NCBI GenBank assembly: GCA_037046615.1
Contig: JBAOHD010000024.1
Span: 1-64,000 of the forward strand
DNA: 64,000 nt
From: Dermatophilaceae bacterium
GTDB taxonomy: Bacteria; Actinomycetota; Actinomycetes; Actinomycetales; Dermatophilaceae
Direction of reading: 5' to 3'
Part shown: positions 16,861 through 62,650 of the stretch, piece after piece
Layout: each line of letters opens with the position of its first letter
Position numbering within the stretch: position 1 is the first letter of the stretch
Translations under genes and position numbers: made by a program
The notes under the pieces: model-generated
The model's input: the letters and a program-made list of their open reading frames with translations, nothing else
The model's database searches: none
What the model was told of the DNA's origin: nothing

Positions 16861-17080
16861 GTGCCGCGTGGAGTACACTCGCGGGCCGTGGCAGACGACC
16901 CGCGCGCGGCGCCGATCGGCGTGTTCGACTCCGGCGTCGGCGGGCTCTCGGTGCTGCGCGAGCTGCGCCGGCTCCTGCCGCACGAGGACGTCGTCTACGT
17001 CGCCGACCACGCCTACGTGCCGTACGGGCGGCGCGACGCCAACGAGATCGTCGCGCGCAGCGAGGCGATCGCGGCGTCGT
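16861..17080 (+). CDS. murI: glutamate racemase, 5' fragment only (gene cut at the block A/B junction)
   Basis: [72 protein letters not shown] carries the VFDSGVGG MurI signature. Homology stops at ~17075. Confidence 0.6.
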
Positions 17081-18056
17081 CGCCGTGCTCCTGGCCGCCC
17101 TCCTCGACCCGATCAAGCAGGTACTGCGCCGCCGGCTCAAGCCCGCAGCCGCGGCGGGAGTGACGGTCGTGGCGACCATTGCTGCCATCTCGCTGCTGCT
17201 GTTCCTCATCGGGAGTCAGATCACGGGCGGTTTCTCGGAGATGGCCGGGCAGGTGGGCCAGGGCCTCGATCAGATCCGAGCGTGGGTCCGCACCACCTTC
17301 AAGATCACCGACAGCGAGTTCGCCCGCTACCTCGACGAGGCCAAGGCCGCGCTGTCATCGAGCGATGGGCTGCGTGGGTCGCTGACCAAGGCCGGCCTCG
17401 GCGCGACCCACGTCATCGCCGGCACATTCATCAGCCTCTTCGCCCTGTTCTTCTTCCTCTACGAGGGCGACCGCATCTGGGGCTGGGTCGTGCGGCTCTT
17501 CCCGCGCGACGCTCGGGCCAAGGTCGCCTCATCAGGTGAGGTGGCGTGGCGGCAGCTCACGGCTTTCACCCGCGCCACGCTCCTCGTGGCTCTCGTGGAC
17601 GCCGCTGGCATCACCATCGTCGCGCTCGTGCTCCGGGTGCCCTTTGCGCTGGCCATCGGTGCGCTCGTCTTCCTCGGGGCGTTCATCCCCATCGTCGGCG
17701 CGCTCATGAGCGGGCTGGTGGCCGTCCTCATCGCTCTCGTCGCCCACGGCCCCGTCGTCGCGTTGCTCATGTTGGCCGGCGTCATCGCGGTGCAACAGCT
17801 CGAATCCCACGTGCTCCAGCCCTTCCTGCTGGGCCGGGCCGTCGCCGTCCATCCCCTGGCGGTGATCCTTGTGATCGCCGCCGGAGTGGTCGTGGCCGGC
17901 ATCGTCGGAGCGCTCGTGGCGGTGCCGATCGCCGCCGTCCTCAACGGAGTGGGCAAACACCTGGCCGGCCATGATGCGCCGGCCCTGCCAGCAGCACCGC
18001 ACCCTCCCGCCTCGTCGGATCCGGGCGAGTCAGGTCCAGCGGCCGCAGCGACCTAG
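17080..18056 (+). CDS. AI-2E family (PerM/TqsA-like) transporter, 3' portion only; the N-terminus is missing at the junction
   Basis: 323 aa with multiple TM helices: ...[70 protein letters not shown]. No frameshifts. The in-frame upstream sequence runs straight into the murI fragment. Confidence 0.65.
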
Positions 18057-18115
18057 CATTCGCTCGGGCGGGCCGTGGCTTCGGCTGTGCTCTGTGGCGA
18101 TCCAGCGCAGTGACG

Positions 18116-19177
18116 TCAGTCGCCGACAGCCCGCGGGACGGCCATTTCGAGCGACGAGTCCTCGCCATCGCACGCACCCGCCTCGGAGCCGGCCGCGTGC
18201 GGCGGTGCAACGGGGGGCAGCGCAGGTGCCTTGTCCTTGAGCGTGTAGGTGGGGGGCGGCACGGCGACGGGGCTCCACGGCATACCGAGGCCGGGGTGCG
18301 AGATCTCGACGGTGGCGGGGTCGACGCCGAAGTCCGCGAAGGCGACCACCGCAGGACGCACGGGAGCGATGGCCGGCGCCGTCGGGGCGACCCGCTCATG
18401 CTCGTCGGGCACCCCCTGCGTGTCGGGCATCTCTGGGGCCTCGATGGCGACCGACTCCACGGCCGCCGCGGAGGAAGTCTCCGAGGGCGCGGCGGCAGGC
18501 GCGGGCCGGGGCGAGCGGGTGGCTGGCCGAGCCGCGGCGATCTGGTCAGCTCGGCCCGGAGCTGACGCGGTGCGCGCGCGTGCCAACTGCGCTCCGGTAT
18601 GCCGTGACGTGCGCTCGCGGACGGCTGCCATCCGCAGTGCACCGACGGCAAGCACGAGCGCGAGCACAGGCACGACGGGCAGCCACCGCGCGATGACATC
18701 CGTGAACGCGAGGACACCGACGACGGGAAGGGCCAGCATCGCGAGCCCACCGAGCAGTGCCCAGGCGCGGCGGATCACCATGGTGCGCCGCGGCACGGGG
18801 CGCCTGCTCGCACGACGGGCTGGTCGAGGACGGGTGTCCAGGGGAGCGTTCGTGCGGGTGACCCCGGCCAGGCTGTCGGGTGGGGTGACCGTCGCGCGCT
18901 GGCTTGAGCGGGCGATCAAGGGCGATGCCGGAGCGCTGGTGGCCGGCGGTGAGGAGACCTTCGCGTGATGCCCTTCGGCGGCCTCCCGCACGGCGAGGCT
19001 GGGCCGCGGGGTGGGCGCGGCGATCACAGGACGACGGTCGAGCACTCGCATCGCGTCGCTGAATCGGTCGAGCGACCGGGCGGTGGCGAGGTCTTCTCTG
19101 CGGCGCACCCAATGCTGCACGAGGAAGGCAGCCCAGATGCCGATGACGGCGACAAAAATCAAGGACGAGGGCTGCAC
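18116..19177 (-). CDS. conserved Ala/Pro-rich transmembrane protein (resembles M. tuberculosis Rv0996)
   Basis: 353 aa with an N-terminal TM (LIFVAVIGIWAAFLVQHW) and a second TM pair in the middle. Sits next to rimJ as in mycobacteria. Confidence 0.5.
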   Translation of the reverse strand: MQPSSLIFVAVIGIWAAFLVQHWVRRREDLATARSLDRFSDAMRVLDRRPVIAAPTPRPSLAVREAAEGHHAKVSSPPATSAPASPLIARSSQRATVTPPDSLAGVTRTNAPLDTRPRPARRASRRPVPRRTMVIRRAWALLGGLAMLALPVVGVLAFTDVIARWLPVVPVLALVLAVGALRMAAVRERTSRHTGAQLARARTASAPGRADQIAAARPATRSPRPAPAAAPSETSSAAAVESVAIEAPEMPDTQGVPDEHERVAPTAPAIAPVRPAVVAFADFGVDPATVEISHPGLGMPWSPVAVPPPTYTLKDKAPALPPVAPPHAAGSEAGACDGEDSSLEMAVPRAVGD

Positions 19178-19204
19178 CGCTCCACGGTATGGAGGCAGGC
19201 GCCT

Positions 19205-19880: not shown

Positions 19881-20378
19881 ATCACCGCCGCCACGGAGCT
19901 GGTCGACCACATGGTCGACCACGGGGCGCAGCACCGACAGGGCGTCCGCGACCCCTCCCCGGGAGCCAGGCAGGTTGACGACGAGAGTCCGCCCGCTGAT
20001 CCCTGCCAACCCACGCGTGATCGACGCGAGCGCCAAACCGCGGCTGATCCCGACATGACGCACGAGCTCTGGTATGCCGGGTATCTCCCGCTCGAGGAAC
20101 GGTCGGGTCTGCTCCGGGGTCACGTCGCCGGGCGCAACCCCGGTGCCCCCGGTCGTGATGACGACCGCCGGGGACGAGGCGAGGGCCGCGCCGATCGCGT
20201 GACCGACCTCCGGCCCGTCGGGGACGACGATCTGCGGCGGCACGGCATACCCCCACTCCTGGAGGGTCGCGACGAGGACGGGACCCGTGCGGTCCTCGTA
20301 GGTCCCGTCAGAAGCGCGCGTGGACGCGACGATGACGACCGCGCGCGGCGCCGCCGCACCCCCGAGCGATCCCGTCAT
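19863..20378 (-). CDS. moaB: molybdenum cofactor biosynthesis protein MoaB/MogA family
   Basis: MTGSLGG...AVVIVASTRASDGTYEDRTGPVLV...VITTGGTGVAPGDVTPEQT. Its ATG overlaps the moaC stop by 4 nt (ATGA). An alternative ATG lies at 20399. Confidence 0.8.
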   Translation of the reverse strand: MTGSLGGAAAPRAVVIVASTRASDGTYEDRTGPVLVATLQEWGYAVPPQIVVPDGPEVGHAIGAALASSPAVVITTGGTGVAPGDVTPEQTRPFLEREIPGIPELVRHVGISRGLALASITRGLAGISGRTLVVNLPGSRGGVADALSVLRPVVDHVVDQLRGGGDHDQAG

Positions 20379-20866: not shown

Positions 20867-22095
20867 CGCTGGCCTCCTTCGGGTGAGCCCACGACGATCG
20901 CCTCGGCCTCGTCGCCTGCGGACAAGGCTGTCACCTCGGCGGGCACGAGCAGGTATGCCGTTGCTTCGGCCAGATCGGCGACGAAATGCGACCCCTGGCC
21001 GGACACCGGGTGAGCCATGAGTCGGTCGCCGTCTTGTGAGAGGAGGGCTCGGGCGATCTGCAGTTTGCCCGCGGGCGATCGCATCCCCGCCGCGAGCGTG
21101 ACGCGGACGGTCGCGGTGGCCGGGTCGAGCCCGAGCAGGCGGCGGATCGCCGGACGGACGAACATCTCGAACGACACTGCGGCCGAGACCGGGTTGCCGG
21201 GCAATCCGAAAAACGTCACGCGAGCTGCGCCGAGGAAACCGAACCCCTGCGGCTTGCCCGGTTGCATCGCGACCTGGACGAACTCCACCGTGCCTGAGTC
21301 GCGCAGCACGTCCTTGACGACGTCGTGGACCCCCATGCTCACGCCGCCTGACGTGATGACGATGTCGACCTCGTTGGCTAGGCGGTCGAGCAATTCCCGA
21401 ACGCTCGCCGGGTCGTCGCCGACGCTCCCCCGGTATGCCGTCCGCCCACCACAGGCCTCGACGAGGGTTGCGAGCAGGATGCTGTTGGAGTCGTAGATCT
21501 GCCCGTCGCGCAGGGGGCTGCCGGGCGGGACGAGTTCGGCTCCGGTCGACACGACCGCGACCCGGGGGCGCGGGTGAGCCGCCACCCGACCATGGCCAGC
21601 GGCAGCAAGGAGAGCGAGCCGGCGAGGGGTGAGGACCAGTCCCGGGGCGAGGACCTCACCGCCACGGCGCAGGTCCTCGCCCTGACGGCGGATGGAGGTG
21701 TCGGCGCGCACCTCGTCTGTGATCGCGACGACGTCATCACCACCGTCGGTGAGCTCGACCTTGACGACCGTGTCGGCGCCCGCAGGCATGGGGGCGCCGG
21801 TCATGATCTGGATCGCCTCACCCTCTCCCACCACCATGTCTGCTGCGGAATCGCCTGCGGCGCAATGTCCGACGACCCTGAGGCACACCGGACGCTCAGG
21901 CGAGGCGCCCTGCAGATCGGCGGCGCGGACGGCATACCCGTCCATGGCGGAGTTGTCGAAGCCGGGGAGGTCGACGAGGGACGTGAGCGTCTCGGTCGCG
22001 ACGAGCCCGGCGGCCTCGGCGAGCGGAAGCGACACCGGAGATAGGGGGACGATCTGGGCCAGGACGGCGAGGCGGTGCTCGGCCACAGTCCTCAC
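20863..22095 (-). CDS. moeA: molybdopterin molybdotransferase MoeA
   Basis: 410 aa: FDNSAMDGYAVRAADL...IQIMTGAPMPAGADTVV...VITSGGVSMGVHDVVKDVL...GLPGNPVSA. Confidence 0.85.
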   Translation of the reverse strand: MRTVAEHRLAVLAQIVPLSPVSLPLAEAAGLVATETLTSLVDLPGFDNSAMDGYAVRAADLQGASPERPVCLRVVGHCAAGDSAADMVVGEGEAIQIMTGAPMPAGADTVVKVELTDGGDDVVAITDEVRADTSIRRQGEDLRRGGEVLAPGLVLTPRRLALLAAAGHGRVAAHPRPRVAVVSTGAELVPPGSPLRDGQIYDSNSILLATLVEACGGRTAYRGSVGDDPASVRELLDRLANEVDIVITSGGVSMGVHDVVKDVLRDSGTVEFVQVAMQPGKPQGFGFLGAARVTFFGLPGNPVSAAVSFEMFVRPAIRRLLGLDPATATVRVTLAAGMRSPAGKLQIARALLSQDGDRLMAHPVSGQGSHFVADLAEATAYLLVPAEVTALSAGDEAEAIVVGSPEGGQR

Positions 22096-23498
22096 GAGCG
22101 CAACACCGCCCCGTCGGGGATCTGCAGGGTCGTCGACCGACCGCGGGTGTCGATGTCGACGTCCCCGAGGCAGGTCACGTGTCCCCCGACGACGACATCC
22201 CCGACGATCCGCAGCGACGTGCAGTGCCGCAAGCTCGGTGAGCCGCCGGGGAATCGCGACTCGAAGTCGTCGATGAGACGGAACTCGGGCCCGAGCTCGA
22301 TCACGGGCACGGGGTGGAGGCCGATGCGCTCCAGCGCAAAGTCCTCGTCGATGCGATAGCGATCTGACCGGATGAGCAGGAGATCGGCCGTCGTCTTGAC
22401 CGGCTCGAATCGCCGGCGTGACACGAGCAGTGCCTGGGCGCCATCGACCGACTCGACGGCCGCCCCCATCGCCGACTCGAGTTGGAGGACCGGGATCGAT
22501 GTCGGGTCGGTGGGATCGACCGTCTTGCGGTTGACAATGACCGGCAGGGCTCGCTCAGGCGCGGACGCGAGCTCGGCGACGACGTCGACGCGCACCCAGA
22601 GGCTGTTGGCATTGAAGAACCGATGACGTGCGATGTCTGCGAAGGCGGATTCTTCCCCCGGCGCGACCATCGCCAGCTCCCGAAGGATGAGCCGACCGTC
22701 CTCCCGGCGGCGAGCAAAGTGACCTCCCTTGCGGTCGTTGGCCGTCCGGACGCAGGCTTCGACGACGAGCGGCAGATCGTGCTCGATGACCCAGCTCGCG
22801 ATCGCAGGGTCGCACGTGGCGCCGAGGTTGTCGGCGTTGGAGATGAAGACATACCGGACGCCGCGCTCGACGAGCTGGTCGAGGATGCCGGACTCAGCCA
22901 AGGAGGCGAACACGTCGCCGTGGCCGGGCGGGCACCACTCCAGTTCCCGGTCGGTCGGCCAGTCAACTGGTGCCATCGTGCCGCTCACCACCTTGGGCAC
23001 CGCACCTTGGAGGAAGTCCAGGGAAAGCCCCTCCACAGCCAGGTCTGGATATGCCGCGAGCGCTCGCGCGGTGTCTTCCCGCGTGCGGAACGAGTTCATG
23101 AACACCAGCGGTAGTGAGACGGCATACCGCTTGCGCAGGGAGAGCACCTGACGGGCGATGACGTCGAGGAAGGTGAGCCCGTCACGCACGACGAGGGCGC
23201 TCTTGGGGCCGTCGAGGCCCATCGTTGTGCCGAGGCCGCCGTTGAGCTTCACGACGGCAACGTGGGATAGAGCCTGTGCGGCCGTCTCGTCGGCGACCTC
23301 GTGAGCGGAGAGATGCGGGAGGTCGTCCACGGGGTCGATAGAGCCTTCTGGGATGAGACCTCGGGCGCCGGCGGCGACCGCGAGGTAGTGGGTGGTGAAC
23401 TGGCCGATAGTGCGTTCGCCGGCGCCCCTGGCGCGCATCCGCCGTTGGGCCTCCGCGAGATTGTCCCGATGTTCGGCGGCAAGTTCCCCTCTCATCAC
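22092..23498 (-). CDS. galU: UTP--glucose-1-phosphate uridylyltransferase (UDPGP / eukaryote-type UGPase family)
   Basis: 468 aa with VVKLNGGLGTTMG (UGPase signature) and PPGHGDVFASLAESGILD. Same position as Rv0993 galU in M. tuberculosis. Confidence 0.8.
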   Translation of the reverse strand: MMRGELAAEHRDNLAEAQRRMRARGAGERTIGQFTTHYLAVAAGARGLIPEGSIDPVDDLPHLSAHEVADETAAQALSHVAVVKLNGGLGTTMGLDGPKSALVVRDGLTFLDVIARQVLSLRKRYAVSLPLVFMNSFRTREDTARALAAYPDLAVEGLSLDFLQGAVPKVVSGTMAPVDWPTDRELEWCPPGHGDVFASLAESGILDQLVERGVRYVFISNADNLGATCDPAIASWVIEHDLPLVVEACVRTANDRKGGHFARRREDGRLILRELAMVAPGEESAFADIARHRFFNANSLWVRVDVVAELASAPERALPVIVNRKTVDPTDPTSIPVLQLESAMGAAVESVDGAQALLVSRRRFEPVKTTADLLLIRSDRYRIDEDFALERIGLHPVPVIELGPEFRLIDDFESRFPGGSPSLRHCTSLRIVGDVVVGGHVTCLGDVDIDTRGRSTTLQIPDGAVLRS

Positions 23499-23533: not shown

Positions 23534-24157
23534 GTGACCTACGCTGGCCCGGTGTCCACCCCCGACAGTGACGTCGCGGAGCGAAAAGCGCGCCTGCGCG
23601 AGACCGTCCGCGCGGGCCGCAGGCATCGGCGTGACGCCGATCCCGAGGGCTGCGCACGCGCGCTGGCCGCGGGTGCGCTCGCGGCGGCGACCCTCGCGTC
23701 GCTCGCGGCACACCCCCGCGCCGGGCACCCACTGATCGTCACGGCATACGACTCCTGGACGACTGAGCCCCCCACGGAGGCGCTCGTGGCGGCGCTCGGT
23801 CAGGCGGGGCACACCGTCCTCCTGCCGATCACACACCCGCTGCCCGACCGGACCCTCGACTGGTATGCCGCAGGCACCGGCCCGCAGGAGCCGTGGGGCG
23901 TCGACGCCATCGCGCGGGCAGACCTCGTGTTGACCCCCGGGTTACTCGTCGACTCGGCAGGCACGCGCCTGGGTCAGGGAGGTGGCTACTACGACGCGTC
24001 CTTGGCCCTGGTGCGGCCGGGCACTCCGGTTGTCGTCGTCCTCTGGGATGACGAGCTCACGACAGACTCACTCCCCCGCGATGATCACGACCGACCGGTC
24101 GACGGGGTGATCCGACCCGGCTTCGGACTGACGTGGTTCGCCCGGGCGCTCGACTGA
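23534..24157 (+). CDS. 5-formyltetrahydrofolate cyclo-ligase
   Basis: 207 aa with the GQGGGYYD motif and a PG-loop. Divergent from galU, as Rv0992c is in M. tuberculosis. Confidence 0.75.
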   Translation: MTYAGPVSTPDSDVAERKARLRETVRAGRRHRRDADPEGCARALAAGALAAATLASLAAHPRAGHPLIVTAYDSWTTEPPTEALVAALGQAGHTVLLPITHPLPDRTLDWYAAGTGPQEPWGVDAIARADLVLTPGLLVDSAGTRLGQGGGYYDASLALVRPGTPVVVVLWDDELTTDSLPRDDHDRPVDGVIRPGFGLTWFARALD

Positions 24158-24207: not shown

Positions 24208-25833
24208 ATGTTCCATGCCGGCATCCATGCGCTCGATCTCGGGTCCCTCGCCGCCGTGGGTTATGACCTCACCGATCTCACGACGACCATGCTCCTCGGG
24301 GCATTCGTCCTGTTCCTGGCGCTCATCTCGGTGCGGATTTCCGACCGCTCCGGGGTGCCGGTCATGCTCCTCTACCTCGGGATCGGCCTGCTCTTCGGCG
24401 CCGACGGTGTGGGGATCCGGTTCGACGACGCTGGCCTCACCCAAGTGCTCGGGTATGCCGCTCTCGTCCTCATCCTCGCCGACGGTGGCCTCACGACGTC
24501 GTGGAGCGGGATCAAACGCTCGGTCGCACCAGCGTTGGTCCTGTCGACGGTCGGGGTGCTCGTGTCGATCCTCGTCGTGGCCGCCGGCGCGACGCTCATC
24601 TTCGGTTGGTCGTGGCGGCTGTCGCTGCTCGTCGGTGCCATCCTCGCCTCGACCGACGCCGCCGCCGTCTTCTCCGTCCTGCGCAACGTCGCCCTGCCCC
24701 GGCGCGTCCGCGGCATGCTCGAAGCAGAGTCGGGCTTCAACGACGCCCCGGTCGTCATCATCACGACCGCCCTCGCGCTCCAACTGTCGACCGCCGCCGA
24801 CGACACTGCGTGGGGACCCCTGCTCGCGCTAGCGCTCGTCGAACTCGCCGTCGGCGCCCTCATCGGCATCTTCATCGGCTGGCTCGCCGGGCGCCTCGTG
24901 CGTCGACTCGCCGCCGGCGCCTCCGGCCTGTTCGCCATCGCCGTCCTCGTGATCCCGATCCTCGCGTATGCCGTGGCGTCGGCCGCCCACATGTCCGGCT
25001 TCATCGCGGCATACCTCGGAGCCCTCGTCCTGGGCAATATGGACCTGCCGCACGAAAACGCCGTCCACGCCTTCGCTTCTGCGGTCGGCACCCTGTCGCA
25101 GATCGGACTGTTCTTCCTCCTCGGACTGCTCGCATCCCCGGGGCGCCTCGGGAGCCAGATCGTGCCGGCCCTCGTCTTGGGCTTCGTCCTACTCGTCGTG
25201 GCGCGTCCCCTATCGGTGGTCGTGTCCCTCGCGCCCTTCCGGATCCCCTGGCGTGATCAAGTCTTCTTGTCGTGGGCAGGGCTGCGGGGGGCCGTGCCCG
25301 TCGTGCTCGCGACCGTGCCGGTGACGCTCGGGGCGGCCGGGATGACGTGGATCTTCGACTTCGTCTTCGTCCTCGTCCTCATCTACACCCTCCTCCAGGC
25401 GCCGACGCTGCCATGGCTGGCCGAACGGCTCGGCCTGGTCGAGTCGATCCAGCCCGTGCCGTTGCACGTCGAGACCACCGTGCTCGACCGCATGAACGCC
25501 GAGATCGTCACCGCTCGCATCGGACCGACGTCGAAGTTGCACGGGGTGGAGGTCTTCGAGCTGCGCCTGCCGCCCGGGGCCAATGTCACGCTCGTCGTCC
25601 GCGACGAGCGGGCCTTCGTGCCCTCCGGGGTGACCCGACTGCACCGCGGCGACGAGTTGCTCCTGGTCACCCCGGCGCCCCTGCGCCACGACGTGCAAAA
25701 ACGCCTCGTCATGGTGAGCCGGTATGGCCGGCTCGCGGGATGGGTCGACGAAGACGCTCCTCCGCTGGGTCGTCGCGCGAGGGCCCGCCGCACGGCGGGG
25801 CGGCTCTGGCGCCGGGCGGCCGTCCGCCGCTGA
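24208..25833 (+). CDS. potassium/proton antiporter (CPA1, NhaP2/CvrA-like) with a C-terminal TrkA-C domain
   Basis: 541 aa. Has 11-13 TM helices (ESGFNDAPVVIITT, LASTDAAAVFSVL) plus a C-terminal soluble domain (VFELRLPPGANVTLVVRDERAFVPSGVTRLHRGDELLLVTP). Confidence 0.75.
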   Translation: MFHAGIHALDLGSLAAVGYDLTDLTTTMLLGAFVLFLALISVRISDRSGVPVMLLYLGIGLLFGADGVGIRFDDAGLTQVLGYAALVLILADGGLTTSWSGIKRSVAPALVLSTVGVLVSILVVAAGATLIFGWSWRLSLLVGAILASTDAAAVFSVLRNVALPRRVRGMLEAESGFNDAPVVIITTALALQLSTAADDTAWGPLLALALVELAVGALIGIFIGWLAGRLVRRLAAGASGLFAIAVLVIPILAYAVASAAHMSGFIAAYLGALVLGNMDLPHENAVHAFASAVGTLSQIGLFFLLGLLASPGRLGSQIVPALVLGFVLLVVARPLSVVVSLAPFRIPWRDQVFLSWAGLRGAVPVVLATVPVTLGAAGMTWIFDFVFVLVLIYTLLQAPTLPWLAERLGLVESIQPVPLHVETTVLDRMNAEIVTARIGPTSKLHGVEVFELRLPPGANVTLVVRDERAFVPSGVTRLHRGDELLLVTPAPLRHDVQKRLVMVSRYGRLAGWVDEDAPPLGRRARARRTAGRLWRRAAVRR

Positions 25834-25971
25834 GATCCCGGCCCGGGATCCGGGTCGGGTGCGGGTCAGGCGTCAGGGGTCTGGGGTCGGGGCTCGTGAG
25901 CGCGATTCGGGTATGCCGTGTGGCGCCCGTAGAATCCCCACGCTGCTCCCGCACCACCCGAAGAGGACTCT

Positions 25972-26364: not shown

Positions 26365-26472
26365 TCGGTCTCAGCCCGGCCGTCATCCCCATCCCGCTCG
26401 GCACACGTCGCACCATCCCCACCCGGCACGTTGCCCCCGGGAAGACGTCCGGGTGCGGCATACCCTGTCGCC

Positions 26473-28804: not shown

Positions 28805-28892
28805 TGTCATGTCTGGAGGGCATCGACGTCGGGTATGCCGCCCGGCCCCCGCCTCTGAAAGCCGGCTGTGCGCCGGGAATCCCGGGGGCGTG

Positions 28893-33280: not shown

Positions 33281-33353
33281 GCCCTCGTAGCTCAGGGGAT
33301 AGAGCACCGCTCTCCTAAAGCGGGTGTCGCGCGTTCGATTCGCGCCGGGGGCA
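33281..33353 (+). tRNA. tRNA-Arg (anticodon CCT)
   Basis: GCCCTCGTAGCTCAGGGGATAGAGCACCGCTCTCCTAAAGCGGGTGTCGCGCGTTCGATTCGCGCCGGGGGCA forms a cloverleaf with a 7-bp acceptor stem, anticodon loop CTCCTAA and a TTCGA T-loop. Confidence 0.85.
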
Positions 33354-33386
33354 CAGGTTTCCGTCAGTGGCACCGTGGAGGGCAGC

Positions 33387-36053: not shown

Positions 36054-36112
36054 TGGAGAGGTGCCGCACCCGCGGCCCGAGGGACCGGCGGGCCGGCCCA
36101 CGCGGCATACCG

Positions 36113-36856: not shown

Positions 36857-36879
36857 GGTCAACCTCTCCTAACGCCTTC

Positions 36880-44294: not shown

Positions 44295-44381
44295 TCGTTG
44301 TCTACGGCCGAAGACGTTCGAGGTCACTCACCTCGGGTGGGTGGCAGCTCTCGCACAGCCGGTATGCCGTGCGCCCGCCGG

Positions 44382-45400: not shown

Positions 45401-46528
<1,128 letters not shown>

Positions 46529-47940: not shown

Positions 47941-47942
47941 AG

Positions 47943-47964
47943 GGTATGCCGCGCGGCATACCCC
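47943..47964. terminator. perfect 22-bp palindrome made of two inverted copies of the over-represented motif; likely a bidirectional terminator
   Basis: GGGTATGCCGCGCGGCATACCC lies exactly between the LCP stop (47940) and the permease stop (47974). Confidence 0.55.
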
Positions 47965-54622: not shown

Positions 54623-54732
54623 GTCCTTTCCTCAAGGTCCTTCGATTCTGGCACCCGGTCTCGCCAGATGCGAGCGTCGCCCGCCTCGCGCCGTCACCAG
54701 GTACCCTCACCCTGGACTGTCAAGGAGGCCCC

Positions 54733-55332
54733 GTGAGCGACCACGATCCGCACAATCCGTCACCGGCAGCGGACCCGACACCGTTCGCTCCGCCCTCACC
54801 TCCGGCCGGAGCGCCCACACCTGCACCTGCACCTGCACCACTTCCGTATGCCGGGCAACAGGCCCATTCGGGGCAGCCGCCGTATGCCGGGCCGCCGCAG
54901 CCGGGCTACCCACCCCCACCCACGGCCTACCCTCAGTACGGCGCACCAGGCACCACGGCATACCCACCTCCGGGTGGGCCCCCGCGATCCGGGCCTTACC
55001 CACCGCCGGCCGGCTATCAGCCAAGCCCCTACGGCCAGGGCGGGGGGCCCGGCCCTGGCGCCCCGGCATACCCAGCCCAGCTCGGATCGCGCCCACTGGC
55101 CCCGAGCAAGGTCTCGCCGATCATGCTCCTCGTGACGTCTGCCCTCGGGGTGCTCCTGACGGGTCTCGTCGGTCCACCGAGTCTCGTGATGTCGATCATC
55201 GCCCTCATGCGCGGCTCGACGGAGCCGGCCAAGGCCGCCCGCATGACAAAGCTCGGCTGGATCGTCCTGGCCGTCAACGCCGTCGTCGGCATCCCGCTGA
55301 TCATCCTGCTCATCATCTGGCTGCGACGTTGA
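54733..55332 (+). CDS. Pro/Tyr-rich protein with a C-terminal two-TM DUF4190-like domain
   Basis: GTG start. PPYAGPPQPGYPPPPTAYPQYGAPGTTAYPPPGGPP... C-terminal SPIMLLVTSALGVLLTGLVGPPSLVMSIIALMRGSTE...IVLAVNAVVGIPLIILLIIWL. Confidence 0.55.
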   Translation: MSDHDPHNPSPAADPTPFAPPSPPAGAPTPAPAPAPLPYAGQQAHSGQPPYAGPPQPGYPPPPTAYPQYGAPGTTAYPPPGGPPRSGPYPPPAGYQPSPYGQGGGPGPGAPAYPAQLGSRPLAPSKVSPIMLLVTSALGVLLTGLVGPPSLVMSIIALMRGSTEPAKAARMTKLGWIVLAVNAVVGIPLIILLIIWLRR

Positions 55333-55336: not shown

Positions 55337-56972
55337 ATGACTGACGGACCCCTGATCGTCCAGAGCGACAAGACCCTCCTGCTTGAGGTCGACCACGCGC
55401 AGGCTGACGCAGCCCGGCGCGCGATCGCGCCGTTTGCCGAGCTCGAGCGCGCACCGGAACACATCCACACCTATCGCGTGACCTCCCTCGGGCTGTGGAA
55501 CGCCCGCGCGGCCGGGCATGACGCCGAGCAGGTCATCGATGCGCTCCTGCGCTATAGCCGGTATGCCGTGCCCCAGCCCCTCTTGCTCGACATCGCCGAG
55601 ACGATGTCCCGCTATGGCCGCCTGACCCTCGAAAAGCACCCCACCCACGGTCTCGTGCTCCACACAACCGACCGGCCAGTGCTCGAAGAAGTGTTGCGGC
55701 ACAAGCGGATCCAGCCGCTCCTTGGGGCGAGGGTGGACGCGGACACGGTCGCGGTCCACCCCTCCGAGCGAGGCCACGTCAAACAGGAGTTGCTCAAGGT
55801 CGGCTGGCCCGCCGAAGACCTCGCCGGATATGTCAACGGCGAGGCCCACCCGATCGCCCTGCGCGAAGAGGGCTGGACGATGCGGCCCTATCAACGGCAT
55901 GCCGTCGATGGGTTCTGGCACGGCGGGTCAGGTGTCGTCGTGCTCCCCTGCGGCGCCGGCAAGACGATCGTCGGCGCTGGGGCGATGGCCGCGGCGGGCG
56001 CGACGACCCTCATCCTCGTGACCAATACGGTGGCGGCGCGACAGTGGAAGGACGAGTTGCTGCGGCGCACCACCCTCACGGAGGCGGAGATCGGCGAATA
56101 CTCCGGCACCCGCAAGGAGATCCGGCCGGTGACGATCGCGACCTACCAGGTCATGGCCGTCCGCCGGAAGGGCGTCTACGCCCACCTCGAGTTGCTCGAT
56201 GCCCGCGACTGGGGGCTCATCGTCTACGACGAGGTGCACCTGCTCCCCGCACCGATCTTCCGGATGACCGCAGACCTGCAGGCCCGTCGGCGCCTCGGAC
56301 TCACCGCCACCCTCGTCCGCGAGGACGGTCGCGAGTGCAGATGTCTTCTCCCTCATCGGACCCAAACGATTCGACGCGCCGTGGAAGGACATCGAGGCCC
56401 AGGGATACATCGCGCCCGCCGATTGCGTCGAGGTCCGCGTCACCCTCCCCGAGGGCGAGCGGATGGTGTATGCCGTGGCCGAGCCTGAAGACCGCTACCG
56501 GCTCGCGTCCTGCACCGCCGTCAAGGACCGCGTCGTCGAGCAACTCGTGGCACGGCATACGGGAGATCCCACTCTGGTCATCGGGCAATACCTCGACCAG
56601 CTCGAGACCCTGGCCGGTCGCCTCGACGCTCCGCTCATCACGGGCGAAACCCCTGTGGCTCAGCGGCAGAAGCTTTTCGACGCCTTCCGGCGCGGTGAGG
56701 TGCGGCTGCTCGTCGTGAGTAAAGTCGCCAACTTCTCGGTCGATCTGCCGGAAGCGTCGGTGGCGATCCAAGTGTCGGGCACGTTCGGCTCACGGCAGGA
56801 GGAGGCGCAGCGGCTCGGGCGTCTCCTGCGCCCCAAGGCCGACGGGCGGTCGGCCCACTTCTATTCGGTGGTATCGCGGGACACCGTGGACGCCGATTTC
56901 GCCGCCCATCGGCAGCGGTTCTTGGCGGAGCAGGGTTACGCCTATCGGATCCTCGACGCCGACGACCTCTGA
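55337..56972 (+). CDS. XPB/Ercc3-type SF2 DNA helicase, +1 frameshift near 56335
   Basis: N-terminal MTDGPLIVQSDKTLLLEVDHAQADAARRAIAPFAELERAPEHIHTYRVTSLGLWNARAAGHDAEQVIDAL..., a Walker A in VVVLPCGAGKT and DEVH in GLIVYDEVHLLPA. After ...LVREDGRE the frame switches to DVFSLIGPKRFDAPWKDIEAQGYIAP...YAYRILDADDL. Confidence 0.75.
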
Positions 56973-56982: not shown

Positions 56983-57816
56983 TTAGGGCGCGCGGTCCAC
57001 GAACGGACGGCGGTATGCCGCGTGCGGATCGGGTGCGCGAGGGCCGTGACCGTTGCCATCGAAGGACCCTGGCATCTCTGACGCTGCGAGAGGATCCGGC
57101 TCGATCACAACGGCACGGACGGGCTCAGGGAAGCTCGAGCCTGAGGGGGGCGCCGGCTCGTGCCTGAGATCGGAAGTTGTCTCCGACCCGACGGCACCCG
57201 CGGCTTCGGGTGTGGTCCCCGAGTCTGGCAGCGAGTCGGGCGCGTCATCGGGCTCGGACGCCACCGCGGGCCCGGGCTGAAAGGCCAGGTTGGCGAAGAC
57301 AGCGACGAGGGCCAGACAGATCAGGGCGTGACCGCCCCACGTATAGGGCGAGTAGTCATCGCTATGCCTCAGCACGCCGAACGCCGCGAGAACCGGCTCC
57401 GCGAGCTTCGTGGCGAGCAGCGGCGACAGCACTGCGAGCGTGTAGACCGCCCCGACGACGAGGCCGCCAAGTGCGGCGACCCGGGGCCAGCGCTCCGAAG
57501 GTCCAGCAGCACGATGAACCGCCACCACCGATGCCGCCATGACGAGAGCCACCAGCGGCACGGTGCTCCACTCGACATTGCCGATCCGCATCAGCAGGAC
57601 AAGGCCCACATTTGTGAGGGGATTGCCCGTCAATTGCGGGGCCTCGACCTGCTGCCCTGACTCCGTGACCACCTCAAAGAGGAAGTCATCGAGGCCCTTC
57701 GACGCCGCGACGAGAGCGCCGACCCAGGCGACCGCCGCGGCATACAGCGGAAGCACGAGCCAGAGCGGGACGACGCGGCGCAGCCAGCGCGCTCGATCCC
57801 CTGAAGCTGTCGCCAC
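56983..57816 (-). CDS. hypothetical membrane protein (5-6 TM) with an acidic Pro-rich C-terminal tail
   Basis: 277 aa: ...VVPLWLVLPLYAAAVAWVGALVAAS...LVLLMRIGNVEWSTVPLVALVMAASVVAV... Confidence 0.4.
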   Translation of the reverse strand: MATASGDRARWLRRVVPLWLVLPLYAAAVAWVGALVAASKGLDDFLFEVVTESGQQVEAPQLTGNPLTNVGLVLLMRIGNVEWSTVPLVALVMAASVVAVHRAAGPSERWPRVAALGGLVVGAVYTLAVLSPLLATKLAEPVLAAFGVLRHSDDYSPYTWGGHALICLALVAVFANLAFQPGPAVASEPDDAPDSLPDSGTTPEAAGAVGSETTSDLRHEPAPPSGSSFPEPVRAVVIEPDPLAASEMPGSFDGNGHGPRAPDPHAAYRRPFVDRAP

Positions 57817-57934: not shown

Positions 57935-59161
57935 ATGCCTCCGACGTCACCCGACCCACGTGGGGTCTATCCGCCTGGGTTCGGCTCCAACCCGCCCTCC
58001 CCCACGATCCCCCCGATTCCCTCGATTCCCCCGGTGACAGTCCACCGATCGCGGCGCCGCGCAGCCGACCTCGTGGTCGTCGCGGTCCTCGCCGCCGGTC
58101 TCGTCTCAAGCGGGACGTATGCCGTGACCCGCCCCAGCACCCCGACCACAGGTGCCACGGCGACACCGATCGCCGCACGCACGGTCGCTCCGGTGGTCCA
58201 GGCCGATGGCACGGCCCCCGATTGGGCAGCGACGGCGGCTGCGGTGGCACCGAGCGTCGTCTCAGTCAAGGTCACGAGCCCCCGCGCGGAAGGAGAAGGG
58301 TCGGGCGTCATCCTCGACGCCGCGGGGCACATCCTCACGAACAATCACGTGGCCACCGGGGCCGGCTCTGGAGCCACCATCTCGGTAACCCTGCACGACG
58401 GTCGTTCGTATGCCGCGACGATCGCCGGTCTCGACGCCGCCACGGATCTGGCGGTCCTCACCCTGCAGGCGCCGCCACCGGACCTCGTCCCCATCGCCCT
58501 CGGAGACTCCGACGCGCTCACCGTGGGCCAGCAGGTCATGGCGGTGGGGAACCCTTTGGGGCTCGCCGGCACGGTCACGACGGGGATCGTGTCTGCGCTC
58601 GATCGGCCAGTCAGCACCGGCTCATCCGAGTCGAGCAGCCGAGCGGCCGGTGAGCCGGTGGTCGTCAATGCGATCCAGACCTCGGCAGCGATCAACCCGG
58701 GCAACTCCGGAGGGGCGCTCGTCACGGGCAGTGGTCAGCTCATCGGGATCAACTCGTCGATCGCGTCCCTCGGCTCGGCATCAGGCCAGAGCGGCAATAT
58801 CGGCATCGGGTTTGCCATCCCGGTCAACGAGGCCAAGGCAATCGCCGACCAACTCGTGACCAAGGGCGCGGCCGACCATGCCTATCTTGGGATCTCGTCC
58901 GCCGACGGCACGGTGACCGACGGGTCTGCCTCACGGGCTGCGGCGACCATCACGTCGGTCTCCTCTGGCACCCCGGCCGCATCGGCCGGACTGCGAGTCG
59001 GCGATGCCGTCGTCGCTGTCGGAGGAAAGCGGATCGACTCATCCTTGGCCCTCGTCGCTGCGATCCGAGCGAGGCAGGTCGGTGACGTCGTGCCAGTGAC
59101 GGTCGTGCGCGACGGACAGCGCAGCGACATCACGGTGACGTTGGTGGCTCGACCGACGTGA
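57935..59161 (+). CDS. trypsin-like serine protease with a PDZ domain (HtrA/PepD family)
   Basis: TM anchor. ILTNNHVA (His region), DLAVLTL, GNSGGAL (catalytic Ser). C-terminal PDZ: GLRVGDAVVAVGGKRIDSSLALVAAI. Confidence 0.8.
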   Translation: MPPTSPDPRGVYPPGFGSNPPSPTIPPIPSIPPVTVHRSRRRAADLVVVAVLAAGLVSSGTYAVTRPSTPTTGATATPIAARTVAPVVQADGTAPDWAATAAAVAPSVVSVKVTSPRAEGEGSGVILDAAGHILTNNHVATGAGSGATISVTLHDGRSYAATIAGLDAATDLAVLTLQAPPPDLVPIALGDSDALTVGQQVMAVGNPLGLAGTVTTGIVSALDRPVSTGSSESSSRAAGEPVVVNAIQTSAAINPGNSGGALVTGSGQLIGINSSIASLGSASGQSGNIGIGFAIPVNEAKAIADQLVTKGAADHAYLGISSADGTVTDGSASRAAATITSVSSGTPAASAGLRVGDAVVAVGGKRIDSSLALVAAIRARQVGDVVPVTVVRDGQRSDITVTLVARPT

Positions 59162-59500: not shown

Positions 59501-59608
59501 TGCGAAATCTTGAAAATCTCTTCTGCGCGGGGTCCGCAAGGTGGGTCGAGGGCAGCATGGCCACGGGTCCCCGTGCTAGAGGGGCGCACGGCATACTGGC
59601 TCCTCGTG

Positions 59609-61658
59609 TCTTCCGCCGCCGCCGACCCGGTCCTTGCCCGTGAGCAGGCCTGGCTCGACCACGCTCGGCGCGAGTTGGCGAGGATGCGCGCCAAGACCGA
59701 GGCGCTGCGCGACAGCGCGGTGGGCGGGGATCGGGTCTCCACGGAGTTCCTCGCCCTCAGGCTCCACGAGCGGGTGCAGGCGTTGGTCGATGACCCCACA
59801 TCGACGGTGTTCTTTGGCGCCCTTGTCTTCGACCACGACATCGAAGGCCACGAGCGGTGGTACATCGGGCGGAGACACATCCACGACGAGGCTGGCGACC
59901 CGGTCGTCATCGACTGGCGCGCCGAGCTGTCGAGCACCTTCTACCGGGCCAGCCGAAGAGCACCCCTCGGCGTCACCCTGCGGCGCCGCTTCGGGGTCGA
60001 CCAGGGCCGACTCACGGCATACGAGGACGAACATCTCGTCGACCCAGCCGAGCAGGCGACCCGCAGCGCGATCCTCGCGGCCGAGATCGAGCGTCCCCGC
60101 GTCGGGCCGATGCGCGACATCGTCGCGACGATCCAGCCCGAGCAGGACGAGATCGTCCGGGCTGACGTCGGCACGACCATCTGCGTCCAAGGCGCCCCCG
60201 GCACCGGCAAGACGGCCGTCGGCCTGCACCGGGCGGCGTGGCTGCTCTACGCCCACCGCGAGCGCCTCGCCCGGTCAGGTGTCCTCGTCGTCGGACCCAA
60301 CGGCATCCTTCCTCGATCACGTCGGCGCCGTCCTGCCAGCCCTCGGGGAAGTCGACGTGCGACACACGACGGCGGCGGATCTCGTGGCGAGCGTGCCCGT
60401 GCGCGGTTCTGACTCCGTCGCAGCCGCCACGCTCAAGGGCGACGTGCGGCTCGCGGACATGCTCAGCCGGGCGGTGTGGTCGCACATCACCGAGCCGAGG
60501 GAGGCGCTCGTCGTCCCCCGCGGGTCGCGCAAGTGGCGGGTGGCGGCGTATCGGGTCGCCGACGTCATCGCGGAGCTGCGCGAGCGGCAAGTGCGCTACG
60601 GCGCCGCCCGCGCCATGCTCACGCAGCGACTCGCGCACCTCGTGCTCACCGAGATGGAACGCTCCGGCGACTCACCCGACGACACCGTCCAGGCCGCGGT
60701 GGCTCGGTCGGCTCCGGTGCGAGCGTATGCCGCCCGGCTGTGGCCGGACCTCACACCGACGAAAGTGCTTGCGAGGTTGTGGTCGGACGCCGACGTCCTC
60801 GCCCGCCATGCCGACGGCCTACTGAGCTCCGAGGAGCAGCGAATCTTGCTGTGGCCGAAGGCACCCCGGTCCGCGGGTGCGGCTCAGTGGTCAGCGGCTG
60901 ACGTCGTGCTCCTCGACGAAATCGCCGACCTTATCGACCGCACGCCGAGCCTCGGGCATGTCATCCTCGACGAAGCCCAAGACCTCTCGCCGATGCAACT
61001 CCGCGCCATCGGACGACGCTGCTCGACCGGTTCGGCGACAGTCCTAGGAGACATCGCCCAAGGCACCACACCGTGGGCCACCGACTCCTGGGACACCACC
61101 CTCGCGCACCTCGGCAAGCCCGGGGCGCACGTCGAGGTGCTCGACCGCGGCTTCCGCGTCCCTGCGGCAGTCATCGAGTATGCCGCCCGCCTCCTGCCGC
61201 ACATGGCGCCCGGCCTGGGGACGCCGGAGTCGGTCCGTGACAACCGCGGGTCGCTCCGCATCGACCCGACTGGAGATCGGAAAGCGTTGCTGGGCAGGGT
61301 GATTGACCAGGTGAAGGGGTGGGGGCAGGACCCAGGGTCGGTGGGTGTCATCTGCGCCGATGACGCCGCCGATGGCTTGTCGACGGCGCTGGGGCTGGCC
61401 GGTGTGCGGCATTCCGTCCTCGGCCGCCAGGCGCCGACGGAGGGCCCGCAGGTCGGCGACGCCGCAGTGACGGTCGTGCGTGCGAGCGAGGCCAAAGGTC
61501 TGGAGTTCGACCGGGTCGTCGTCGTCGAACCTGCCGAGATCGCGGCGGCCGAAGCCGACCATCGCACGGGGCTGCGCCGCCTCTACGTCGTCCTCACCCG
61601 CGCGGTCACGGCCCTGGCAGTCGTCCACGAGCGGCCGCTGCCGCCCGAACTCGCCTGA
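59609..61658 (+). CDS. helD: HelD-like UvrD-family helicase (actinobacterial RNA-polymerase-associated HelD class), +1 frameshift near 60300
   Basis: Walker A in ICVQGAPGTGKTAVGLHRAAWLL. After VVGPN the frame switches to ...FLDHVGAVLPALGEV..., then Walker B HVILDEAQDLSPMQLR and a C-terminal GLEFDRVVVVEP...RLYVVLTRAVTAL. A GTG start at 59609 is assumed; ATG at 59510 is possible. Confidence 0.7.
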
Positions 61659-61672
61659 GAGACTGACCATCA

Positions 61673-62349
61673 TGCCCGCGCTCATCCAGTGGTGGACCCA
61701 GGACCTCGCAGTCCTCTCCCCGACCGCGCTCGAGGATGCCGTGTATGCCGCAGGCGCGGACCTTCTCATCCGGTGGGGCCAGCCACACCGTCACTACCAC
61801 GGCACCCGGCACCTCGTGGAGATGTTCTGGGCGCTGGAGGAACTCGAAGACGCGGGAGAGATCGACGCCAGCGCCGGGCTCCTCGGCCGGGTTGCCTCGT
61901 GGTGGCATGACGCGGTCTACGACCCACGCGCCGTCGACGGGGCCAACGAGGCCGACAGCGCCGCGCTGGCCCGCGAAGTCCTCACGAGCCTGGAGTGCGA
62001 CGCTGCGGACGTCGACCTGGTCGAGGCCCTCGTCCTGGCCACGGCGTCACACCGCGGGGCATCCGATCCGGTGGAGAGAGCTTTCCTCGACGCCGACCTG
62101 TGGATCCTGTCGGCCCCGGCGAGCCGCTTCGACGACTATTGCGCGCGAGGTGCGCCGAGGAATACGCCCACGTGCCTGACGCGGCCTACGCCGCTGGGGC
62201 GTGCGGAGCAGCATCCTCAGGGAGTTTGCCAGCGCGTCCCCAGATCTACCGTACTGATCACGCTGCGGCTGGCTTGGGAGCCGCCAGCGCGGGTCAACCT
62301 CGACCGCGAGCTCGGGCGACTGGCAGGCCCCACCCTCGACGTCACCTGA
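61673..62349 (+). CDS. HD-superfamily metal-dependent phosphohydrolase-like protein with about 3 frameshifts at 62150-62290
   Basis: MPALIQWWTQDLAVLSPTALEDAVYAAGADLLIRWGQPHRHYHGTRHLVEMFWALEE...WWHDAVYDP... The C-terminal half is split over two frames (EEYAHVPDAAYAAG / PQIYRTDHAAA / WEPPARVNLDREL). Confidence 0.45.
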
Positions 62350-62504
62350 TCGCGCCAGTGCTTTCGCGCAGGACGTATGCCGCGAGCGGCCACCAGAACT
62401 GCCGCCCGGCCAGGAGCGCGAACTCCTCGGGGGTCGCCCACTCGGGTGGGCGTGACGAGCCAGGCTCGGCTCGCAACCTCGGGGCGCTGGCGGGCAAGCG
62501 GACG

Positions 62505-62650
62505 GCATACGCCTCCGGCCTCGAGATTTCGGTCCAGAATGCCGTCAGCCCCTCGCTGAAGCTTTGGCTCGCCATATAGAGGATCGGTCCCACCAGCAGG
62601 ACGAGGAAGTAGAGCCAGACGATCCCGATCAACAACCAACGCATGCACAT
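62505..62650 (-). CDS. cysW: sulfate ABC transporter permease CysW, N-terminal ~50 aa only (cut at the block B/C junction)
   Basis: MCMRWLLIGIVWLYFLVLLVGPILYMASQSFSEGLTAFWTEISRPEAYA matches the CysW N-terminus. Downstream of codon ~50 the sequence is unrelated and GC-rich. Confidence 0.5.

Follow-up and report, generated by a model that had tools for sequence, protein, structure and literature searches.

The DNA analysed here, a window of 64,000 nucleotides from contig JBAOHD010000024.1 of a Dermatophilaceae bacterium, carries 77 exact copies of the octamer CGGCATAC when both strands are scanned over the whole window (38 on the plus and 39 on the minus strand). All copies are confined to positions 18278-62510, with a spacing of about one per 600 bases, and lie in one contiguous piece of Dermatophilaceae-like core chromosome at 17080-62515, which we call block B and which has a GC content of about 70%. 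Block B was delimited by cut genes, by its housekeeping content and by synteny with relatives, which spans 18.3-55.5 kb. The word, in the form (A/G)CGGCATAC, is almost certainly a lineage-specific, strand-symmetric and hyper-abundant chromosomal word of the Dermatophilaceae. Its reverse complement is GTATGCCG, and it is not palindromic.

By gene content, block B is ordinary actinobacterial core chromosome. It encodes molybdenum-cofactor genes, a UTP-glucose-1-phosphate uridylyltransferase, a Na/H exchanger, MscL, a purine-nucleoside phosphorylase family protein, a 1373-aa protein with an MTES_1575 nuclease domain, tRNA-Arg(CCT), a LysR regulator, an NlpC/P60 gene behind a c-di-AMP riboswitch, a DtxR/IdeR-family repressor with iron-dependent repressor domains, a photolyase, citrate synthase, a class-V aminotransferase, a LytR-family protein, an NCS2 permease, a DUF3027 protein, a cold-shock protein, an XPB-type helicase and an HtrA-type protease. 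Block B showed nothing typical of phages, plasmids or repeat families, and a phage or plasmid origin was rejected after megablast searches of phage and plasmid collections returned only short housekeeping-gene and tRNA matches. The riboswitch, of the ydaO type (Rfam, 64.6 bits), lies at 36859-37015 on the minus strand, upstream of this hydrolase gene.

The window as a whole is a composite of unrelated DNA pieces joined at cut genes. At the left junction (17079/17080), the N-terminus of a glutamate racemase breaks off (…AIAA) and another frame takes over; past this point the sequence runs mid-gene through an AI-2E transporter, whose Pfam match begins at model position 30. At the right junction, at about 62515-62525, block B abuts the N-terminal portion of a minus-strand ABC-permease gene, and the DNA to the right of it has about 60-63% GC. 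Block A, at 1-17079, has 72-83% GC with a zone of 83% GC at 8-11 kb. Its domain matches are partial and split among frames (Aldedh 1-231 of 461, a part of Peptidase_M3, Gln-synt_C in two frames), which suggests frameshifts or more junctions. Block A also contains a tRNA-Leu(CAA) at 7828-7911 on the minus strand. The over-represented words CTCGAG and GAGCTC in this block were dismissed as ordinary Leu-Glu and Glu-Leu codon pairs, which look enriched only against Streptomyces, where they are avoided. An exact scan of both strands found no copy of CGGCATAC in 1-18277 or in 62511-64000. The initial annotation of the window had pointed out this absence, which stands but carries no biological meaning, because the flanks derive from other organisms.

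The same annotation had put the number of copies at 73-75 with a strand ratio of 38/37; the enrichment and the balance are borne out, and the number is corrected to 77. Dinucleotide-preserving shuffles yielded on average 1.14 copies and at most 4. In the Markov comparison that had been proposed as a check, models of orders 1-6, trained on block B after masking of the 77 copies, predicted 0.5-0.7 copies. Models of orders 4-5 trained on unmasked block B predicted 19-53, but only because the copies themselves had taught them the word. CGGCATAC is the commonest 8-mer of block B, and its boundaries are sharp: the shorter parts GGCATAC and CGGCATA occur 78 and 80 times, and the 24 one-mismatch variants occur 0-8 times each. 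Summed, these variants stay at background, with a total of 35 in block B and of about 36 per 45 kb in Streptomyces DNA. In the window, the word is preceded by A in 39 of the 77 copies and by G in 30, and it is followed by C in 43 and by G in 21. In 334 copies pooled from the window and close relatives, position -1 holds 47% A, 40% G, 12% C and 2% T, corresponding to 0.6 bit, and outside positions -1 to 8 the information does not exceed 0.3 bit per position, so that no longer repeat unit exists. All 8 intergenic copies in the window have the form purine-CGGCATAC-C. The enrichment is thus confirmed as real and large.

An origin of the word in an Illumina P7 adapter (CAAGCAGAAGACGGCATACGAGAT, which includes ACGGCATACGAG), in assembly or polishing errors, or in the core of a repetitive extragenic palindrome or a miniature inverted-repeat transposable element is extremely improbable. 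The presence of ACGGCATACGAG in the adapter and the composite nature of the window are what such an origin has in its favour. The flanks of the copies, however, do not continue into adapter sequence: the word is followed by C in 54% of cases, and the next base is A in only 6%. Moreover, copies stand in frame in conserved genes and at orthologous sites in independent assemblies, comprising isolate genomes (Terrabacter, Knoellia), nanopore metagenome-assembled genomes, and JGI, ENA and Logan contigs. Neither conserved sequence nor a hairpin extends past the core, as it does in such mobile repeats. Flank composition and positional conservation thus rule out adapter contamination and a longer repeat unit. 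The overlap with the P7 adapter does make sequence and text searches for the word noisy.

Coordinates of the copies were taken from the exact-word scan and their readings from the open reading frame (ORF) in which each copy lies. About 69 copies are located within ORFs and 8 are intergenic, the latter mostly downstream of genes, and the densities are similar, at about 1.7 per kb in coding and about 1.5 per kb in intergenic DNA. Six of the 14 copies at first scored as intergenic belong to low-complexity, Pro/Tyr/Gly-rich N-terminal coding segments clipped by the simple gene caller, which scores these segments as intergenic. The two segments, at 54780-55110 (…PYAGQQ…PPYAGPP…TTAYPPP…APAYP…) and 45000-45110 (…GFGPGMPPGFGPGMPGG…), hold clusters of 4 and 2 copies, respectively. 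Within genes, the word has strong frame preferences. The reading nnG-TAT-GCC-Gnn (Tyr-Ala) accounts for 33 copies and nCG-GCA-TAC (Ala-Tyr) for 19, together about 52 of the 69 coding copies, and each of the other four readings for 3-5. The earlier statement that copies occur in all three frames is therefore correct as to occurrence, but they are not evenly spread. In both favoured readings, position 5 of the motif is a synonymous third codon position occupied by a disfavoured base, and the copies make use of the rare codons TAT, GCA and ATA.

Tyr-Ala copies on the plus strand lie at 20243-20250, 21930-21937, 23120-23127, 29414-29421, 30500-30507, 30764-30771, 32444-32451, 33716-33723, 34100-34107, 40659-40666, 41846-41853, 41981-41988 (kept in 11 of 11 aligned relatives), 50002-50009, 50437-50444 (kept even in the Terrabacter and Knoellia loci) and 57738-57745. 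On the minus strand, this reading is found at 23863-23870, 24453-24460, 24966-24973, 35710-35717, 38168-38175, 42528-42535, 47865-47872, 53537-53544, 53606-53613, 54846-54853 (as P-Y-A-G) and 54882-54889, both in the Pro/Tyr-rich N-terminus of ORF 54577-55332(+), as well as at 55561-55568, 56468-56475, 58117-58124, 58408-58415, 60725-60732, 61178-61185 and 61743-61750. The copy at 56468-56475 sits in the overlap of two XPB-helicase ORFs and reads Tyr-Ala in the downstream frame (…MVYAVA…). This XPB/ERCC3-type helicase gene is split into overlapping ORFs at 55337-56488 and 56463-56972 on the plus strand in different frames, which is a frameshift, a pseudogene or an assembly indel. The copy was considered as the cause of the split and discarded: the downstream frame is already open at 56421, which places the shift upstream of the copy and makes the two unrelated.

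The Ala-Tyr reading is used on the plus strand at 23742-23749, 25007-25014, 27436-27443, 38350-38357, 38593-38600, 42602-42609, 46281-46288, 52465-52472, 53104-53111, 54956-54963 and 55064-55071 (the last two again in ORF 54577-55332(+)), and on the minus strand at 20953-20960, 21433-21440, 31776-31783, 32079-32086, 41116-41123 (kept in 9 of 9 aligned relatives), 50561-50568 and 57013-57020. Four copies read Gly-Ile (nnC GGC ATA Cnn), at 20072-20079(-), 26456-26463(+), 30194-30201(-) and 35116-35123(-). Gly-Met-Pro (GGT ATG CCG) is found at 18278-18285(+), 27751-27758(-) and 37517-37524(+), and at 45054-45061(+) and 45078-45085(+) in the Gly/Pro-rich N-terminus of ORF 44382-45209(-); Arg-His-Thr (CGG CAT ACn) at 18597-18604(-), 40592-40599(-) and 56553-56560(+); and Val-Cys-Arg (GTA TGC CGn) at 45878-45885(-) and 52434-52441(-). 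For two copies in coding regions, at 59589-59596(+) and 60015-60022(+), the frame is uncertain owing to competing ORF calls, and gene assignment is uncertain for the two copies closest to the right junction, at 62375-62382(-) and 62503-62510(+), the latter being the last copy, 5-15 nt to the left of the junction.

Copies had also been said to sit in promoters and terminators; the intergenic ones are restricted to the 8 mentioned above. They are found downstream of the Na/H exchanger gene (25911-25918(-)) and of the photolyase gene (39312-39319(-), kept in 6 of 6 aligned relatives), between convergent genes at 28833-28840(-), 36103-36110(+) and 44362-44369(-), at 41260-41267(+), and as a pair at 47944-47951(-) and 47954-47961(+). 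The copy at 41260-41267 is kept in 5 of 10 aligned relatives (L086, L087, L139, L001 and L005) and lies 11 nt upstream of a match to the actinobacterial small RNA Ms_IGR-5 at 41278-41472(+) (Rfam, 71.2 bits). The pair forms the two arms of a perfect 22-bp palindrome, GGGTATGCCGCGCGGCATACCC, with a 9-bp stem at 47942-47963, one base off the position previously given for this hairpin. It is located between convergent stop codons, as the LytR-family gene ends at 47940 and the NCS2 permease gene at 47974. A 51-nt fold around it has a predicted energy of -20.3 kcal/mol, which is not stronger than that of shuffled sequences (z -1.5), and the other intergenic copies in the window likewise showed no hairpin stronger than shuffles. 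The notion of inverted pairs in terminators thus shrinks to a single pair.

Spacing between copies is near-random with weak evenness (coefficient of variation 0.80), and regular spacing was not upheld, the Greenwood test giving P = 0.03 in the window and P = 0.11 in the pooled loci. Gaps of at most 100 bp number 11, against 12.3 expected, and close pairs at 10-40 bp occur at chance frequency; the closest direct pairs, 24 and 36 bp apart, sit in low-complexity coding repeats. Orientation is balanced both in the window and in 9 related loci, a local test within one chromosomal region. Since cumulative GC skew is monotonic over block B, placing it on one replichore, this balance argues against polar motifs of the Chi type, against the FtsK-orienting polar sequences (KOPS) and against the SpoIIIE recognition sequences (SRS). 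The earlier judgement that the word is neither Chi-like nor KOPS-like therefore holds.

We compared block B with citrate-synthase loci, using one genome per species, and with further loci retrieved through metagenome contigs; all compared loci represent the same chromosomal neighbourhood, so that genome-wide uniformity is presumed. Dermatophilaceae is used here in the GTDB circumscription, which includes Intrasporangiaceae-type genera. In the citrate-synthase loci of this family, CGGCATAC is the top or near-top enriched 8-mer. Two activated-sludge metagenome-assembled genomes contain 25 and 31 copies in 21 kb, Terrabacter 10-14, Knoellia 9-12 and Ca. Lutibacillus 13 copies. Phycicoccus, Pedococcus, Segeticoccus and Intrasporangium have fewer, yet still more than background. 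Expressed as densities, the wastewater clade reaches 1.5-2.0 per kb, compared with 0.2-0.8 per kb for Terrabacter, Knoellia, Phycicoccus, Pedococcus, Segeticoccus, Intrasporangium and Ca. Lutibacillus. Every Dermatophilaceae locus compared is enriched (0.2-2.0 per kb), and the close relatives hold 258 copies in 165 kb. Streptomyces has 25 copies in 911 kb, or 0.027 per kb; the Kineosporia and Sporichthyaceae loci have none, and in the Angustibacter locus the word is outside the top enriched 8-mers. This survey, which the initial annotation had called for, speaks against a repeated gene family or a local artefact of the contig, as the enrichment recurs in independent genomes and metagenomes of the family.

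Loci from digester and wastewater metagenomes whose citrate synthase is 88-97% identical contain 1.5-1.9 copies per kb. Contigs with identical MscL or cold-shock proteins fall into two groups, of 80-85% and 96-99% identity. Over window positions 18.3-36.2 kb, the former have 1.7-2.0 copies per kb, and the latter, from wastewater metagenomes, have all copies of the window in common. From these contigs and the related loci it follows that block B stems from an uncultured Dermatophilaceae bacterium of wastewater. The word characterises this source chromosome and, less densely, the whole family, with the highest density in the uncultured wastewater clade that includes block B. A one-off word, CGTCATAC, is enriched in L003, a Phycicoccus metagenome-assembled genome (5 copies), and in L041, Ca. 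Lutibacillus (6 copies), where Streptomyces rates predict fewer than 0.1; this could be a 'dialect' of the motif.

Among phages of family members, one was available, Tetrasphaera phage TJE1. It is lytic, has a GC content of 58%, carries 2 copies against an expectation of 1.9 and shows no depletion of GTAC. A scan of IMG/VR for inverted pairs, involving at least 120 contigs of mixed GC, showed only a chance pair among the matches listed. The tRNA-Arg(CCT) of block B (33281-33354) resembles the attP core of actinophage RP3, and beside it L282, L283 and L286 carry a 2.6-kb three-gene insertion that is not present in the window. In L282 (14962-17539), its genes encode proteins of 541 aa and 143 aa and a dCMP/MafB19-type deaminase, and it contains 2 copies of CGGCATAC against about 4 expected.

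Conservation of the word exceeds that of the surrounding sequence by a wide margin. At about 80% nucleotide identity, 91-100% of motif sites are conserved, compared with 24-36% of other 8-mers, and at about 76% identity, 47-70% compared with 14-19%. Some copy positions are common to block B, Terrabacter and Knoellia. Across seven relatives, the A or T at synonymous position 5 of the motif is conserved in 79-100% of cases (e.g. in 20 of 20 in L282), whereas other third-position A or T bases are conserved in 17-29%. At sites that differ in relatives, the alternative is usually a single-base variant, so that turnover of the word proceeds by point substitution, and the word is created by such substitutions, mostly at synonymous sites. 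Its occupancy of permissive contexts is high: of 33 x-Tyr-Ala-[A/V/G/D/E] contexts able to hold the word synonymously, 32 do so, as do 16 of 23 [S/T/P/A]-Ala-Tyr contexts.

Because synonymous position 5 and whole sites are conserved far above their comparison classes and the occupancy is near saturation, a strong force at the level of DNA, not protein, maintains CGGCATAC, as the initial annotation had surmised from the rare codons. This force overrides codon preference and has reshaped neighbouring amino acids. The residue after Tyr-Ala is Ala or Val in 64% of cases, where 25% would be expected (P = 9e-8), and the residue before Ala-Tyr is Thr or Ala in 61%, where 21% would be expected (P = 2e-7). 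Coevolution of uptake sequences with proteomes has been analysed before (PMC2817400).

A second peculiarity of the same genomes is the scarcity of GTAC. In block B, only 16 GTAC sites occur, or 0.35 per kb, compared with about 2.8 per kb expected from composition, about 1.8 per kb in non-Dermatophilaceae actinobacterial loci (L016, L026) and 4.1 per kb in Streptomyces. The depletion is common to all motif-rich relatives (L081-L088, L282-L293), and across loci the observed/expected ratio of GTAC correlates with motif density (Spearman -0.70), a correlation confounded by phylogeny. The word CGTACG is about 60-fold rarer than in Streptomyces. Restriction or methylation may lie behind the depletion. 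One transition separates CGGCATAC from the GTAC-containing octamer CGGCGTAC (= GTACGCCG), which is the commonest one-off neighbour in Streptomyces (0.26 per kb), drops stepwise with rising motif density across loci and, against an expectation of about 12, has no copy in block B. The remaining one-off neighbours show no depletion.

Two simple causes rooted in GTAC were considered and rejected. Avoidance of GTAC as the sole cause does not account for the word, as GTAT outside the GTATGCCG context is not raised (0.88 versus 0.87 per kb). A simple C-to-T hotspot at GTAC, i.e. deamination of GTACGCCG, likewise taken as the sole cause, fails on mass balance: the motif and its synonymous precursors together occur at 1.8 per kb, compared with 0.36 per kb in Streptomyces, and a hotspot would convert only existing precursors and should be unable to multiply the word family five-fold. 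With GTAT raised only within GTATGCCG, and the word family at 1.8 versus 0.36 per kb, neither GTAC avoidance nor deamination therefore explains the motif.

The same data bear on a passive origin, in which codon and dipeptide usage, GTAC avoidance and mutational bias would produce the word without any reader. Such an origin could draw on the 75% of coding copies that stand in two frames for the common pairs Tyr-Ala and Ala-Tyr, and on the removal of the main synonymous alternatives, GTACGCCG and GTACGCGG, by GTAC avoidance. We nevertheless judge it very unlikely. The codons used, TAT and GCA, are disfavoured, with 19 sense-frame GCA-TAC against 5 CGGCCTAC in all of block B; the 8 intergenic copies all have the purine before and the C after the word; masked Markov models up to order 6 expect less than one copy; and the restriction of raised GTAT to the word, the constancy of position 5 and the distortion of the amino-acid context itself are not what composition would yield. 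Together with the artefact, the passive origin is essentially excluded.

Some of these features recall HIP1, the highly iterated palindrome GCGATCGC of cyanobacteria, which is now argued to act in DNA uptake (bioRxiv 10.64898/2026.06.24.733823). HIP1 is likewise an octamer that occurs more than once per kb without strand skew, is conserved lineage-wide and has long been puzzling in function; it differs in being a palindrome holding the targets of two methylases, whereas CGGCATAC is asymmetric and without a known methylase. A palindrome comes into play for CGGCATAC only through the avoided GTAC, from which the word differs by one transition. By analogy, our word could be the target or end product of an enzymatic process acting autonomously at each site, e.g. 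a dedicated methyltransferase or a sequence-specific, Vsr-type mismatch correction that turns near-cognate sites into the word, and this process might be coupled to whatever causes GTAC avoidance. This explanation gains from the nearly saturated occupancy and from the absence of repulsion among adjacent copies, as well as from the loss of CGGCGTAC with rising motif density and the strong, correlated depletion of GTAC. The density of 1.7 per kb is also closer to that of HIP1 than to those of the proteobacterial uptake words discussed below.

Several observations do not fit such a site-autonomous process. The word is non-palindromic, unlike HIP1 and most enriched methylase targets; the insufficiency of a C-to-T hotspot, the normal level of non-motif GTAT and the phylogenetic confounding of the GTAC correlation count against it as well; and the normal frequency of the other one-off neighbours argues against general conversion to the word. 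We know of no repair bias that yields a 60- to 100-fold enrichment. Near-saturation and the absence of repulsion therefore keep this explanation in contention, although on balance we find it doubtful.

The site-by-site constraint would also be expected of a dense array of protein-binding sites, each under selection. Its reader could be a nucleoid organiser, or the word could be a Chi-like marker taming an AdnAB/RecBCD-type nuclease-helicase, so that DNA lacking it, such as phage or plasmid DNA, would be degraded. An exact, non-palindromic 8-9-mer fits what Chi-reading nucleases and the winged-helix domains of FtsK, SpoIIIE and TraB recognise. The strong purifying constraint at individual sites and the chance-level occurrence of the word in the one available phage are in line with this proposal too. 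Yet the word shows no strand skew over 45 kb or in syntenic relatives, whereas Chi, KOPS and SRS are co-oriented with replication; it is not preferentially intergenic; and no candidate reader protein emerged. Taken together, this makes a binding-site array unlikely.

A closer comparison with the oriented motifs sharpens the contrast. Chi, e.g. GCTGGTGG in E. coli, is over-represented like CGGCATAC (PMC8022716). It comprises 5-8-mers that are read in single-stranded or in oriented form and mark self DNA for recombinational repair. Chi follows the direction of replication and is enriched no more than a few-fold, far below the level seen here. Our word has no skew (38:39 over 45 kb, without any relation to the direction of replication), and its enrichment is 60- to 100-fold. 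KOPS and SRS, and the 8-bp TraB recognition sequences (TRS) that Streptomyces TraB binds in clt loci, are exact non-palindromic 8-mers. They are read by winged-helix domains of double-stranded DNA translocases, and TraB-type transfer is the native conjugation of actinomycetes. KOPS and SRS are strongly skewed between replichores, and TRS are a few clustered direct repeats in a plasmid locus. By contrast, CGGCATAC is dispersed, unskewed and chromosomal, and its near-random spacing shows no TRS-type clustering of direct 8-bp repeats in one locus.

Words resembling uptake sequences have so far been described in two families of proteobacteria, to which HIP1 of cyanobacteria may add a third case. 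The DNA uptake sequences (DUS) of Neisseriaceae have the core GCCGTCTGAA, an extended form ATGCCGTCTGAA and family 'dialects' (PMC3630211). Like our word, a DUS is a short, exact, non-palindromic word present about once per kb in both orientations, in genes and between them, family-wide at varying density and at conserved positions. A DUS is also rare in foreign DNA, which may apply to CGGCATAC as well. CGGCATAC differs in its occurrence in Gram-positive Actinomycetota, in its length of 8-9 instead of 10-12 bp, in being about twice as dense, in having no enrichment of inverted terminator pairs, and in lacking clear dialects beyond the hint of CGTCATAC in two loci. The heptamer ATGCCGT, common to the CGGCATAC region and the neisserial AT-DUS, looks coincidental, as flanks and positional conservation show for both this and the adapter overlap.

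The uptake signal sequences (USS) of Pasteurellaceae, with the core AAGTGCGGT (PMC1626085, PMC2817400, PMC3458573), are likewise hyper-abundant in both orientations and mostly genic, use preferred frames, leave an imprint on peptides and arise by point mutation. In CGGCATAC, the flanks are nearly devoid of information and one-mismatch variants stay at background. USS have AT-rich flanking segments and many one-mismatch relatives.

High density, both orientations, and a distribution that is family-wide yet rare outside the family are thus shared by CGGCATAC with DUS and USS, the palindromy of HIP1 and the polarity of Chi, KOPS and SRS are not. Compared through published uptake-sequence statistics (PMC3630211, PMC2817400, PMC1939737), the resemblance to DNA-uptake sequences noted at the outset holds statistically, and it extends to conserved positions and to the protein imprint. 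Because density, orientations, genic placement, frames, proteome imprint and family distribution match those of uptake sequences, we rank a 'self' tag for DNA uptake or transfer as the likeliest function of the word, although we propose it tentatively and by analogy. The part in DNA uptake now argued for HIP1, the other unskewed octamer known to be hyper-abundant, speaks for it as well. A machine that imports or transfers DNA, be it natural transformation or actinomycete double-stranded DNA transfer of the FtsK/TraB type, would read CGGCATAC as self; fragments bearing the word would be taken up or transferred preferentially and would replace word-less alleles by homologous recombination; and molecular drive would spread and preserve the word, whether or not selection for exchange among kin contributes.

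Several points weigh against a self tag. Among the genes of the 64-kb window there is no competence, pilus, ComEA/ComEC or TraB gene, and to our knowledge sequence-specific DNA uptake has not been reported for any Gram-positive bacterium. The near-saturated occupancy and the chance-level frequency of close pairs suggest a force acting on every site independently of the others, and a force of this kind fits better because the advantage in fragment uptake should level off at one copy per fragment. Inverted pairs are not enriched at terminators, with one pair in 45 kb. The comparison with phage DNA, finally, is a weak one, made with one lytic phage of 58% GC.

No description of CGGCATAC was found in the literature on the word itself, on the family, on uptake sequences or on over-represented octamers in actinobacteria, within a coverage that excludes most subscription journals. 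Hyper-abundant, unskewed words of the DUS, USS and HIP1 kind are hereby extended to the Actinomycetota, from which we found none described in the literature covered. Uptake-sequence-like words are textbook cases of a DNA-handling machine rewriting a whole genome, and CGGCATAC, which fills nearly all permissive coding contexts and distorts protein sequence, would provide a new system in which molecular drive can be weighed against selection. It would also serve as a simple marker for binning contigs and for detecting chimeras and horizontal transfer in Dermatophilaceae; in the present window, it located both artificial junctions, the left one to within about 1.2 kb and the right one to within a few bases.

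For the organisms themselves, the analogy raises the possibility, which we hold with somewhat less assurance still, that Dermatophilaceae, including the abundant 'Tetrasphaera'-type phosphate accumulators of wastewater, may recognise self DNA by sequence during exchange, with (A/G)CGGCATAC as the tag. If true, this predicts a sequence-specific system of DNA exchange or marking in the family, and no uptake sequence of the DUS/USS type would have been known before from a Gram-positive phylum; its evolution would have been independent of that in proteobacteria. Donor DNA supplied with the word would then offer a handle for transforming the so far genetically intractable wastewater phosphate accumulators.

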